NCBI GenBank assembly: GCA_013116665.1
Contig: JABFJY010000032.1
Span: forward strand, 1-53,109
Source: Corallococcus coralloides
GTDB lineage: Bacteria; Myxococcota; Myxococcia; Myxococcales; Myxococcaceae
DNA: 53,109 nucleotides
Direction of reading: 5' to 3'
In this document: positions 17,066-19,652 of the stretch, piece after piece
How positions within the stretch are numbered: position 1 is the stretch's first letter
How the letters are laid out: the number at the start of each line of letters is the position of its first letter
Notes under the pieces: model-generated
The model's input: only the letters and a program-made list of their open reading frames with translations
What the model was told of the DNA's origin: nothing
Databases searched by the model: none
Translations under genes and position numbers: made by a program

Positions 17066-17550
17066 GCGGCTCCCGCCAGCTGTGCTCGTTCCAGGTGGGT
17101 GACCACCTGTTCGGCCTGGACATCGAACGCGTGCAGGAGATTCTGCTCCCGCCCCCGCTCACGCGCGTCCCCGGTGCGCCTCCGGAGGTGGCGGGGCTGC
17201 TCAACCTGCGCGGGCAGATCGTCCCCTCCATCGACCTGCGCCGCCGCCTGGACCTCCCTGAGGGCACCGCCCCCGCGGACGCGCCCCACGTCGTGCTGCG
17301 CGGCGACGAGGGCGCGGTGAGCCTTCGCGTGGATGCCATTGGCGACATCCTCCCCTTCGAGCAGTCGGACCTGGCGCCGCTGCCGGACAACCTCCGCGGG
17401 CCGCTGCGCTCGCTGCTGTTGGGTGTCCATGCGCTGCCGGACCGGCTGCTGCTCGTGTTGTCCGCGGACGCGGTGGTGGACGGGCTCTCCCCAGCGTCCA
17501 GCGCCTCCGCCTCCCCTTCCTTCCCCGTGCTTCCCCAGGAGTCCCGCTGA
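17062..17550 (+). CDS. cheW: CheW coupling protein
   Basis: 162 aa. ATGA overlap with the cheA stop. CheW fold motifs [21 protein letters not shown]...[14 protein letters not shown]. Confidence 0.9.
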
Positions 17551-19652
17551 TGGCCCGCCCGACCGCGCCCGCCGTGAAAACCACCCTCTTCCAGCGCCTG
17601 GGCGGCAAGGCCCCCCTGACGGCCGCCGTGCAGAAGCTCTACGCGCGGGTGATGACGGACGCGCTGCTCAAGCCCTACTTCCGCCGCTTGGACATGCTCC
17701 AGCTACAGCGCCAGATGGTCGCGTTCCTCACCCAGCACCTGGGCGGTCCGGGCGTCTACAAGGGCCCGTCGATGCGCGAAGTGCACGCGCGCATGGAGCT
17801 CGAGCCCCGTCACTTCGGGCGCGTCGCCGAACACCTGGCCACCGTGCTGGATGACCTGGACGTGCCGGGCCCCGTCGCCCGCGAGCTGCTGGCGGCCGTG
17901 GGCTCGTCGCAGGGCGACAGCGTGAGCAGGCCCGTGGCGAAGGCCGCCTCGCGGACCGCCGCCGTGAAGCGTGCTCCGGCGCGTGCCTCCCGGACGGAGG
18001 GACGCCGGGTCGCCGCCGCGTCCGCCCCCGCGGCCCGGTCCTCGCGCCGCCGCGCGCCCACGCCGCTCGAAGGCGCCCTGAGCGAGGCGGTGCTGGACGC
18101 GGCGAGCGTCAACCTGTTCGTCCTGGACGCGGACCTGGCCATCGTCTTCTCGAACGCGTCCTCGTCGGAGGCCATCGAGCGCATCCACCAGGCGTCCGGC
18201 CTGCGCGACGGCGCGGGGGACGCGGGCGGCGACTTCCTCGCCCACTTCGAGCACCAGCTCCGGCTGGAGGAGGAGCGGCTGCTGGAGCCCTCCGCGCTGC
18301 CGCACGAGGCCCACTTCGCGGTGGGCCCCACGCTGATCAAGGCGCGCATCGACGGCATCTCCGGCCGGGGCGGAGCGCTCACCGGCTACGTGGTGACGTG
18401 GACGGACGTCACGGATCAGCAGCGCACGGACACGGAGTTGGCGCGCCTCAGGGCCATGATGGAGAACGCCCCCACCTGCGTGATGGTGGCGGACCTGGAC
18501 CTGAAGATCATCTACCTGAACCCCGCCTCGCGCCGGCTGTTGCAGCGCGTGGAGAAGCACCTGCCCGTCGCCGCGGACCGGGTGCTGGGCTCCCACATCG
18601 ACGTCTTCCACCGGGACGTGGCGTACCAGCGGAAGATCCTGGCCAACGACAAGAACCTGCCGGTGCGCGCGAACATCCCCATTGGCCCGGAGACCGCGGA
18701 CCTGCTGGTGACGGCGGTGTACGACGGCCAGGGCCGCTACCTGGGCCCCATGGTGACGTGGGAGCTGATCACGGACAAGCTCGCCGTGCAGCAGCGCGAG
18801 CAGGAGCTGGACACCACCCTGCGCGGCATCTTCCAGGAGGTGACGCAGCACTCGCAGACGCTCGCCGCGTCGTCGCAGGAGCTGTCCAGCGTCAGCCAGC
18901 AGCTGGTGAGCAACGCGCAGGAGACCGCGGCGCAGGCCACGCAGGTGTCCGCTGGCGCCGAACAGGTCAGCCGCAACGTGCAGAGCGTCGCGTCCGGCAT
19001 GGAGGAGGTCAACGCGAACATCCGCGAGGTGGCGCGCAACGCGAGCACCGCCGCCAAGGTGGCCGCGTCCGCGGTGAAGCTCGCGGACTCCACGTCCAAC
19101 GTCGTCGGCAAGCTGGGGACGAGCAGCCAGGAGATCGGCAAGGTCATCAAGGTCATCACCTCCATCGCGCAGCAGACGAACCTGCTGGCGCTCAACGCGA
19201 CCATCGAGGCGGCGCGCGCCGGTGAGGCGGGCCGGGGCTTCGCGGTGGTGGCCAACGAGGTGAAGGAGCTGGCGCGCGAGACGGCCCGCGCCACGGAGGA
19301 CATCGGCCAGAAGATCGGCACCATCCAGGGCGACACCGAGGAGGTGGTCAACGCCATCCTGGAGATCGGCGCCACCATCAGCCGCATCGACGAGCTGCAG
19401 ACGTCCATCGCCTCCTCCGTCGAGGAGCAGACGGCCACCGCGGGGGAGATCCTCCGCAACGTGGGCGAGGCCGCCAAGGGCAGCCAGCAAATCTCCGAGA
19501 ACATGGCCGCCGTGGCGGAGGCCGCGCGCAGCACCACCGAGGGCGCGGGCAGCACGCAGCGCTCCGCGGTGGAGCTGGCCCACATGGCGCAGTCGCTGCA
19601 ACGGCTGGTCGTGCAGGTGGACACCTCCGACAAGCCGGCGCGGACGAAGTAG
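17550..19652 (+). CDS. Cytoplasmic methyl-accepting chemotaxis protein: N-terminal truncated hemoglobin (group I 2/2 Hb) plus PAS domains plus MCP signalling domain
   Basis: The N-terminal ~120 aa, [24 protein letters not shown]...[26 protein letters not shown], match trHbN. The C-terminus has the highly conserved MCP domain [30 protein letters not shown]. No TM segments. Confidence 0.85.

Follow-up and report, generated by a model that had tools for sequence, protein, structure and literature searches.

A group I truncated haemoglobin and a predicted Aer2-type PAS domain in the Cc-5 chemoreceptor of Corallococcus coralloides

Introduction

The closest described system to the locus analysed here is the Cc-5 chemosensory cluster of Corallococcus coralloides DSM 2259, which was defined by Sharma, Parales and Singer (BMC Genomics 2018; PMC6194562) as the gene set CheA-CheW-MCP-ABC1-ABM-CheB-CheR, without a CheY (MCP, methyl-accepting chemotaxis protein; ABM, antibiotic-biosynthesis-monooxygenase fold). 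Its MCP, Cc_4972, was described as a cytoplasmic protein combining Bac_globin, PAS and MCPsignal domains, and the same combination was listed for six other complete genomes. The cluster was present in one of 34 myxobacterial genomes, and ABC1 and ABM were stated to occur in no related cluster. A role in aerotaxis or energy taxis and a horizontal origin were proposed, and the authors also raised a "rudimentary or non-functional" scenario. They described one generic PAS domain and discussed FAD- or Aer-type sensing; the words "truncated", "trHb" (truncated haemoglobin) and 2-on-2 do not occur in that text, and no haem-pocket analysis is given. The subject of the present study is the chemoreceptor gene (mcp) and its surrounding operon in a 53,109-nt stretch of C. 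coralloides DNA (assembly GCA_013116665.1, contig JABFJY010000032.1, forward strand), hereafter called the window.

Other families of soluble receptors and globins are relevant for comparison. The Aer2 proteins (McpB/TlpG) of Pseudomonas aeruginosa (PaAer2), Vibrio cholerae (VcAer2) and Vibrio vulnificus (VvAer2) are soluble MCPs that can contain tandem PAS domains (two in VcAer2 and three in VvAer2), and the roles of their Eη-His, Hβ-Leu and Iβ-Trp residues have been established by experiment in all three (PMC10107281). HemAT and the other S-family globin-coupled sensors are cytoplasmic proteins with an N-terminal haem globin of the 3-on-3 type and a C-terminal MCP domain. Finally, single-domain group I truncated haemoglobins (trHbN) are known from, among others, Mycobacterium tuberculosis (HbN), Tetrahymena, Paramecium and Chlamydomonas. 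A 2026 aerotaxis review cites the Cc-5 system as a prediction only, and our literature search found no experimental follow-up of it.

Our analysis goes beyond the 2018 paper in assigning the globin to the 2/2 group I subgroup with a Met at position E11, in the identification of an Aer2-type PAS2, a degenerate PAS1 and a disordered linker, and in describing the loss of CheY, the genus-wide conservation of the locus and a variant in Corallococcus sicarius.

Results

Identity of the receptor

An exact-sequence look-up identified the window receptor as GenBank entry NOJ93230.1 of C. coralloides, which belongs to the same 90% cluster as WP_014397685.1, the Cc_4972 protein of strain DSM 2259. The two proteins are identical at 661 of 700 residues (94%) without gaps, and 21 of the 39 differences are located within residues 1 to 120. 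No 19-mer of the receptor exceeds 1.67 on the Kyte-Doolittle scale, and hence it contains no transmembrane helix and is soluble, i.e., cytoplasmic. The G+C content of the window is 65–74% throughout. Species, gene order, lack of CheY, Pfam architecture and the proposed O2 or energy taxis are those of Cc-5, and the object itself is no different. It is therefore hardly in doubt that the receptor is the published Cc-5 MCP, containing a trHbN and an Aer2-type PAS domain.

An earlier note on the window, made from the DNA letters alone, had implied that the fusion is new. This does not hold, because the 94% identical protein and the same operon were published in 2018: both were already known in silico, and the assignment of the trHbN subgroup refines a known object. 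Since they are also cited in the 2026 review, the value of the window lies in confirmation and refinement rather than in discovery. The coordinates of all features are collected in Table 1.

Table 1. Features of the receptor gene, its product and the surrounding window. Positions count from the first nucleotide of the window; dN/dS is the median ratio of non-synonymous to synonymous substitution rates.
Feature	Position	Strand	Residues	PaAer2 counterpart	Median dN/dS	Basis or remark
Chemoreceptor gene (mcp), 700 aa, ATG to stop	17550..19652	+				ORF and domain searches; order trHbN, linker, PAS1, PAS2, MCP
Group I truncated haemoglobin domain	17583..17909	+	12-120		0.39	Pfam, PDB phmmer, AF2, Foldseek, conservation
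Low-complexity Arg-rich linker	17910..18083	+	121-178		0.54	Composition, AF2, alignment
PAS1	18084..18416	+	179-289		0.65	phmmer vs PaAer2 PAS, E 9e-4; highest dN/dS of all regions
PAS2	18441..18770	+	298-407		0.27	PDB Aer2 PAS matches; directly N-terminal to signalling helix
Eη-His of PAS2 (codon)	18609..18611		H354	H234		Haem ligand
Hβ-Leu of PAS2			L385	L264		Fills ligand cleft
Iβ-Trp of PAS2 (codon)	18759..18761		W404	W283		O2 stabilisation
MCP kinase-control hairpin	18774..19625	+	409-692		0.14	MCPsignal Pfam, NCBIfam/profile collinearity, AF2
PAS-LuxR (GerE) one-component regulator, without REC	13777..14721	+				Pfam; 49 nt upstream of cheA
cheA	14771..17065	+				Pfam: Hpt, dimerisation domain, HATPase_c, two tandem CheW-like domains; no REC
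cheW	17062..17550	+				Pfam CheW 2.6e-29; 4-nt overlap with cheA, 1-nt overlap with mcp
ABC1/UbiB-type atypical kinase gene	19733..21325	+				Pfam ABC1 2.2e-47
ABM gene	21348..21683	+				Pfam ABM 4.5e-14
cheB (REC + methylesterase)	21695..22762	+				Pfam; start MNAIRVLVVDD
cheR	22759..23652	+				Pfam CheR_N + CheR; ATG overlaps cheB stop (ATGA)
REC-HD (HD_5) protein gene	1708..3348	+
SNF2-family helicase gene (large)	7965..11810	+

The N-terminal truncated haemoglobin domain

The earlier note had read the N-terminus of the receptor as a trHbN-type globin of the 2/2 group I class, on the basis of an LGG motif, a Tyr and the pattern GGPxxYxGxxMxxxH. All of these are present in the receptor (L17-G18-G19, Y31 and G65-G66-P67-x-x-Y70-x-G72-x-x-M75-x-x-x-H79), and the profile searches lead to the same assignment. 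Pfam detects Bac_globin (PF01152) at residues 12–110 (E 6.7e-17, 62 bits versus a cut-off of 21) and no non-globin domain at the N-terminus, and the receptor gave no Pfam match to the Protoglobin (PF11563) or Globin family at E<=0.01. When residues 1–147 were compared with all PDB chains using phmmer, 38 sequences were retrieved, all of which are truncated haemoglobins save for one marginal terpene synthase (E 0.013). The best matches are all group I proteins, namely those of Tetrahymena (3aq5, 3.4e-19), Chlamydomonas (THB1, 1e-17), Paramecium (1dlw, 1.2e-15) and M. tuberculosis (HbN, 5e-15). Most group I chains had E-values between 3e-19 and 4e-13, whereas group II chains scored 3e-9 or weaker, with a value of about 1e-4 for the group II protein HbO of M. 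tuberculosis.

Structure prediction agrees with these results. The AlphaFold2 (AF2) model of residues 1–130, generated from a 38-sequence alignment, has a mean predicted local distance difference test score (pLDDT) of 85 and a predicted template modelling score (pTM) of 0.77. It contains helices at residues 20–34, 49–63, 75–81, 86–102 and 107–124, corresponding to helices B, E, a short F, G and H. A Foldseek search of the PDB with this model returned group I truncated haemoglobins as the first 25 matches (template modelling (TM) scores of 0.83–0.85, root-mean-square deviation (rmsd) 1.2–1.5 Å), followed by group II proteins at an rmsd of 2–3 Å; no 3-on-3 globin was present among the top 50 PDB matches. 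The model superposes on M. tuberculosis trHbN (1idr/1s56) with a TM score of 0.84 and an rmsd of 1.4 Å.

The receptor globin was aligned with M. tuberculosis HbN and with the corresponding domains of 46 homologues that are likewise fused to an MCP. The resulting 47 MCP-fused globins comprise 18 from Corallococcus and 29 from distant relatives. The pocket numbering follows the HbN sequence used, which reproduces the literature positions Y33, F46, L54, Q58, H81 and V94. The proximal His F8 corresponds to H79 (codon 17784-17786) and is invariant in all 47 globins (18/18 Corallococcus orthologues and 29/29 distant ones). Tyr B10 (Y31) and Phe CD1 (F44) are likewise found in 47/47, and the two Gly-Gly hinges, G18-G19 and G65-G66, are near-invariant. 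G18, G19, Y31, F44 and H79 are also invariant columns in our globin alignment A1. Position E7 is a Leu (L52), as in most of the 47 proteins. Position E11 is a Met (M56, window positions 17715-17717); a Met is present here in 17 of the 18 Corallococcus proteins, and the canonical Gln in 21 of the 29 distant ones. Position G8 is a Val (V92); a Trp at G8 marks truncated haemoglobins of groups II and III. With Leu at E7 and Met at E11, Tyr B10 is the sole polar distal residue, and an interaction between the Met and the haem iron would be possible.

The receptor globin thus matches the single-domain trHbN proteins in fold, at 30–36% sequence identity, and it has both Gly-Gly hinges, Tyr B10, Phe CD1, His F8 and Val G8, as well as the Leu E7 of M. 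tuberculosis HbN. It differs from them in being fused to a signalling protein, in having Met instead of the usual Gln at E11 and in lacking the pre-A extension of M. tuberculosis HbN. The fold, the F8, B10, CD1 and hinge residues and the group I features all point the same way, and the N-terminal domain is almost certainly a 2/2 group I truncated haemoglobin, which bears out the earlier note in its assignment, its 2-on-2 fold, the conservation of the proximal His in orthologues and its distinction of this globin from the 3/3 type of HemAT. The domain is predicted to bind haem, and the identity of its ligand is likewise a matter of prediction.

A predicted Aer2-type haem PAS domain

As the earlier note had stated, the globin is followed by PAS domains and a canonical MCP domain: there are two PAS domains (Table 1), and MCPsignal is detected by Pfam at residues 497–658 (E 1.2e-32). 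The Pfam PAS models match around residues 298–341, within PAS2. When residues 175–437 were compared with the PDB, the matches obtained were haem-binding Aer2 PAS structures of P. aeruginosa (3vol, 6e-15; 4hi4, 1e-13) and V. cholerae (6ceq, 1e-12), and the best NCBIfam match of the whole receptor is the Vibrio Aer2 model. Residues M187, H234, L264 and W283 of PaAer2, counted along 4hi4, all align with identical residues in the receptor. The PAS2 His, Leu and Trp are kept in 18/18 Corallococcus orthologues and in 94–97 of the 98 MCP-proximal (last) PAS domains of relatives. Judging from these residues, PAS2 is a putative Aer2-type PAS-haem domain, and would be a second haem sensor beside the globin; its occupancy by haem is predicted on the same grounds.

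Like Aer2, the receptor is a soluble MCP with homologous PAS domains; Eη-His, Hβ-Leu and Iβ-Trp are present (all three in PAS2), and the tandem arrangement of the PAS domains and a signalling domain collinear with the E. coli type are common to both. It differs from Aer2 in its extra N-terminal truncated haemoglobin, in a PAS1 without the haem His and in the absence of a C-terminal pentapeptide, and its operon differs in that ABC1 and ABM are present and CheY is absent.

Linker and PAS1

The globin is connected to PAS1 by a linker containing 13 Arg or Lys versus four Asp or Glu residues. In the full-length AF2 model, residues 120–170 have a pLDDT of about 29, so that a stretch of about 50 residues is predicted to be disordered. 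Residues 121–140 contain indels and have a column identity of 0.36 among orthologues. The second half of the linker is relatively conserved and includes the sequence RSSRRRA. The cytoplasmic FrzCD receptor of Myxococcus has a basic DNA-binding tail that anchors it to the nucleoid, and the Arg-rich linker recalls this tail.

PAS1 keeps the Iβ-Trp (W284) and a DxT motif, and has a Glu (E234) at the position of the Eη-His. The Corallococcus orthologues (18/18) show the pattern F-E-[HQ] here. In relatives from outside the genus, 119/119 non-terminal PAS copies have kept the His. On this evidence, PAS1 is probably haem-free.

The signalling hairpin and its coupling to the sensor domains

The MCP hairpin has its tip near E559 and is collinear with the profiles of E. 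coli Tar and Trg. A motif scan revealed a methylation-site-like consensus at residues 621–630 and no C-terminal pentapeptide, and no HAMP domain was matched in the receptor by Pfam at E<=0.01. In the full-length AF2 model, the domains have pLDDT values of 70–88, the pTM is 0.32, and residues 409–692 form one continuous helix. The last strand of PAS2 (residues 397–407) runs straight into this helix at residue 409, and therefore the plausible physical route into CheA control is from PAS2. By contrast, the disordered linker of about 50 residues makes a HemAT-like coupling of the globin through a continuous helix unlikely.

Like HemAT and the other S-family globin-coupled sensors, the receptor is cytoplasmic and combines an N-terminal domain of the haem-globin superfamily with a C-terminal MCP domain, and O2 sensing has been proposed. 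Its globin, however, is of the 2-on-2 T family, group I, rather than a 3-on-3 Protoglobin or sensor globin, and is set apart from the signalling helices by the disordered linker and two PAS domains. Since neither a 3-on-3 fold nor a helical linkage was found, the receptor does not belong to the globin-coupled sensors of the HemAT type.

The earlier note had placed the globin in the receptor instead of a classical sensor. This part of its reading was not upheld, because an Aer2-type PAS2 with all of the ligand-binding residues abuts the signalling helix and the globin is attached via a disordered linker. The globin is an addition to an Aer2-like gas sensor and not the sole or obvious primary sensor. 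The further idea of the earlier note, in which O2 or NO sensing by the globin feeds this Che pathway, is a hypothesis.

Selection on the receptor domains

The median dN/dS per region was determined by the Nei-Gojobori method for the 45 pairs formed by ten orthologous genes (Table 1); codon bias has probably raised the absolute values in a genome of such high GC, and it is their ranking that is informative. The receptor ORFs are intact in ten of the ten orthologues. The globin is maintained, less tightly than PAS2, and PAS1 is the most relaxed region, in keeping with its missing haem ligand. The values of 0.14–0.39 for the MCP hairpin, PAS2 and the globin indicate long-term purifying selection since the divergence of the genus.

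Distribution and relatives

A scan of GTDB species representatives detected the receptor gene in ten genomes. Nine of these are named Corallococcus (C. coralloides, C. carmarthensis, C. exercitus (two genomes), C. aberystwythensis, C. praedator, C. terminator, C. sicarius and Corallococcus sp. RDP092CA) and the tenth is a Myxococcaceae metagenome-assembled genome. The 2018 figure of 1/34 thus reflects the sampling at that time. Synteny is perfect wherever the contig is readable: the genes PAS-LuxR, cheA, cheW, mcp, ABC1, ABM, cheB and cheR follow each other and are flanked by DUF72 (−) on one side and DAGK (−) on the other.

Three distant homologues are located on contigs, and all of them have the order CheA-CheW-[globin-PAS-MCP]-CheY-CheB-CheR, with CheX added in two. 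The closest relative outside Corallococcus (P0019, JGI 3300047160) contains two tandem truncated haemoglobins, four Aer2-like PAS domains and an MCP domain, and is encoded in the gene order REC-GAF-CheA-CheW-MCP-ABC1-ABM-CheY-CheB-CheR-HisKA_3. The ABC1 and ABM pair is therefore not unique to Corallococcus, contrary to what was stated before (PMC6194562). In the Corallococcus loci, 11–15 nt separate ABM from cheB. The CheY of the distant homologues, that of P0019 included, points to an ancestral CheY, and together with this short gap it shows that the Corallococcus lineage has lost the gene.

Overall, the family members are soluble MCPs whose tandem Aer2-type PAS domains number from one to five, with one or two N-terminal trHbN joined to them in some proteins and none in many. 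Globin-less relatives with the backbone of tandem Aer2-type PAS and MCP domains include P0025-P0050 and proteins of Hyalangium and Gemmataceae. Because many relatives share this backbone without a globin, the globin is an add-on module. The fusion of globin and MCP recurs across phyla, always with the globin at the N-terminus, in at least 47 proteins among the matches of one search. Further fusions (P0266, P0269, P0274 and P0282) were found in an exhaustive globin-profile search of 1.84 billion representatives, as was P0270, in which a globin is fused to an MCP domain without recognisable PAS. This search returned 11,145 cluster representatives; the top 150 are dominated by multi-unit tandem truncated haemoglobins, and a handful of long single-stretch proteins were typed. 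A profile search of a 5.8-billion-protein database with the globin alignment, using a word pre-filter, yielded 20 single-domain truncated haemoglobins.

The top relatives in the globin-profile search are very long proteins with 3–14 tandem truncated haemoglobin units (14 in the 1882-aa protein P0141), and multi-unit truncated haemoglobins are abundant in metagenomes. Another protein, P0273 (578 aa), resembles CheA or a fragment of such a protein: it has HATPase_c and CheW-like domains, with a Bac_globin embedded at residues 223–336. This may reflect the insertion of a truncated haemoglobin into a CheA kinase, or an error of gene calling.

The C. sicarius CA040B gene (L010 29-1711; also P0022) is a natural variant. 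It is an intact ORF of about 561 codons whose product keeps the truncated haemoglobin, and in which PAS1 leads in frame into what is otherwise the post-PAS2 segment ('VVTWDDITEKLSVQEREK'). This in-frame fusion indicates that recombination between the tandem repeats took out the haem-type PAS2. The ABC1 and ABM genes between mcp and cheB are absent from this species too.

The operon around the receptor

The published Cc-5 operon is complete in the window, and the junctions from cheA to cheR measure, in order, −4, −1, +80, +22, +11 and −1 nt. According to the earlier note, the operon lacks a CheY and encodes a CheA with two CheW domains, and both statements proved correct. Residues 458–548 and 619–718 of CheA form an internal repeat (36% identical, E 3e-8) that corresponds to its two CheW-like domains. 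Searches with the REC domain of CheB and with Pfam did not reveal a stand-alone CheY/REC protein in the operon or elsewhere in the 53-kb window, where REC domains are found only in CheB and in the REC-HD protein encoded 11 kb upstream. Moreover, as cheB begins 11 nt after ABM, there is no room for a cheY gene at this position. The SNF2-family helicase and the REC-HD protein have no apparent link to the che operon.

The PAS-LuxR gene is located at the same position upstream of cheA in eight Corallococcus loci; it may be co-transcribed with the che operon, and lies outside the published definition of Cc-5. The position of ABC1 does not vary among the full Corallococcus loci, and the metagenomic P0019 shares it. 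The ABM protein showed weak matches to MhuD and HmoB in the PDB (about 4e-4). We considered whether it might be a haem oxygenase of the IsdG/MhuD type controlling the haem of the receptor, and rejected this, as the catalytic Trp66 and His75 of MhuD align to Phe65 and Glu69. A fusion of truncated haemoglobin and ABM is known in Streptomyces (cited in PMC7475203), and the presence of an ABM gene in one operon with a truncated-haemoglobin protein echoes that fusion.

Discussion

The reading that we favour, with a probability of about 0.4, is that PAS2, as in Aer2, exerts the proximal control over CheA and that the tethered trHbN modulates signalling rather than driving it, with both haem sites occupied. 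We infer haem binding, ligand identity, the direction of signalling and the cellular output of the receptor from its relatives and its domains. PAS2 sits directly on the N-terminal signalling helix. H354 would hold its haem, to which O2 and possibly also NO or CO would bind, and W404 would stabilise the bound ligand. By analogy with Aer2, a ligand-dependent change at the Iβ strand might pass straight into the hairpin and modulate CheA via CheW and the two CheW-like domains of CheA, and CheR and CheB would provide methylation-based adaptation. The trHbN, with Tyr B10, Leu E7, Met E11 and His F8, would form a second haem site on a flexible basic tether, without signalling through a rigid helix. 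Its modulation would most likely take one of two forms: ligand- or redox-dependent docking onto the PAS1/PAS2 module, as a second input, or local processing of the ligand, through buffering of O2 or through dioxygenation of NO of the kind carried out by M. tuberculosis HbN. PAS1, its haem ligand gone, would serve as a degenerate spacer or adaptor. Corallococcus would have lost the cognate CheY that the ancestral cassette contained, in which case the output would run via an unlinked response regulator, or only via CheB.

Several observations weigh against this model. Haem binding by the globin or by PAS2 is itself a prediction, and the Corallococcus globin has Met in place of the canonical Gln at E11. 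Docking of the globin finds no counterpart in the full-length AF2 model, which contains no confident contact between globin and PAS domains (pTM 0.32, disordered linker). The receptor has no HAMP or poly-HAMP, while the characterised Aer2 proteins relay PAS signals via HAMP, and it scores 188 bits with NF041847, the Vibrio Aer2 equivalog, for which the cut-off is 1200. The lack of HAMP and the score under the cut-off mean that the receptor is not an Aer2 orthologue, even though its sensor PAS is of the Aer2 type. C. sicarius has kept the globin and lost PAS2, which argues either that the globin alone can be a sensor or that the system is decaying in that species. Lastly, without CheY the pathway could be vestigial in Corallococcus.

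The same C. sicarius variant is the best argument for the reading of the earlier note, in which the truncated haemoglobin is the primary O2 or NO sensor (a "trHb-coupled sensor") and the PAS domains serve mainly as transmission or dimerisation modules. The recurrence of the N-terminal globin-MCP fusion across phyla, in at least 47 proteins and the further examples, also speaks for it, and so do P0270 with its globin-MCP arrangement lacking recognisable PAS, the invariant pocket residues and the dN/dS of 0.39. Nevertheless, PAS2 has a complete, conserved Aer2 haem/O2 site that is under tighter constraint (0.27 vs 0.39), the indel-rich, disordered linker of about 50 residues offers no evident allosteric route, and globin-less PAS-MCP relatives were at least as common in the same search; we therefore consider this reading doubtful. 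A related idea is that the globin is a genuine input beside PAS2, which would make the receptor the first "2/2-globin-coupled sensor". In this two-haem integrator, a high-affinity trHbN site and the PAS-haem site, differing in ligands or affinities (e.g., NO/redox vs O2), would jointly set CheA, with the globin docking via its tether; we put this forward tentatively, as rather unlikely.

It is also conceivable that the globin does not signal at all. M. tuberculosis HbN is an established NO dioxygenase, and its distal triad is that of most members of the present family (Tyr B10, Leu E7, Gln E11), so that the globin might be a tethered NO dioxygenase or O2 store that conditions the PAS-haem sensor or protects it from NO, possibly helped by ABM and ABC1. 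A flexible tether would suit such a proximity-based function. The NO dioxygenase roles of truncated haemoglobins have been reviewed (PMC3820574), and a characterised trHbN fusion, the raphidophyte nitrate reductase-2/2HbN, is enzymatic (PMC3820574); the Streptomyces ABM-trHb fusion (PMC7475203), taken with the ABM gene in this operon, goes in the same direction. Yet Gln E11 has been lost in Corallococcus, the operon encodes no evident reductase partner, most related cassettes lack ABM and ABC1, and the ABM protein lacks the catalytic residues of MhuD/IsdG, all of which makes this explanation unlikely. Least probable in our view is that the cassette was gained by horizontal transfer and persists in Corallococcus as a remnant that has ceased to signal. 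Relatives have a CheY and Corallococcus has none, the His of PAS1 has been replaced by Glu in a domain with a dN/dS of 0.65, and C. sicarius has lost PAS2, ABC1 and ABM; a scenario of this kind had already been raised by Sharma et al. (PMC6194562). The intact ORFs in ten of ten orthologues, the perfect synteny of tightly overlapping genes in ten genomes and the dN/dS values of 0.14–0.39 for the MCP, PAS2 and globin regions are difficult to reconcile with such decay.

Apart from the 2018 paper, our literature search found no trHb-MCP or trHb-Aer2 fusions, with the limit that the work of Hade et al. (2017) on multidomain truncated haemoglobins was outside its coverage and may list similar ones. 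In a 2020 review (PMC7475203), bacterial chimeric T globins are listed only for groups II and III. If the globin truly signals, the concept of the globin-coupled sensor would extend from the S to the T (truncated) globin lineage, and the receptor would be a natural two-haem chemoreceptor for studying the integration of two gas or redox inputs. The natural deletion variant of C. sicarius is useful for dissecting which of the haem domains signals. Within the myxobacteria, it would stand as the sole chemosensory pathway of a non-flagellated glider that is predicted to sense O2 directly.

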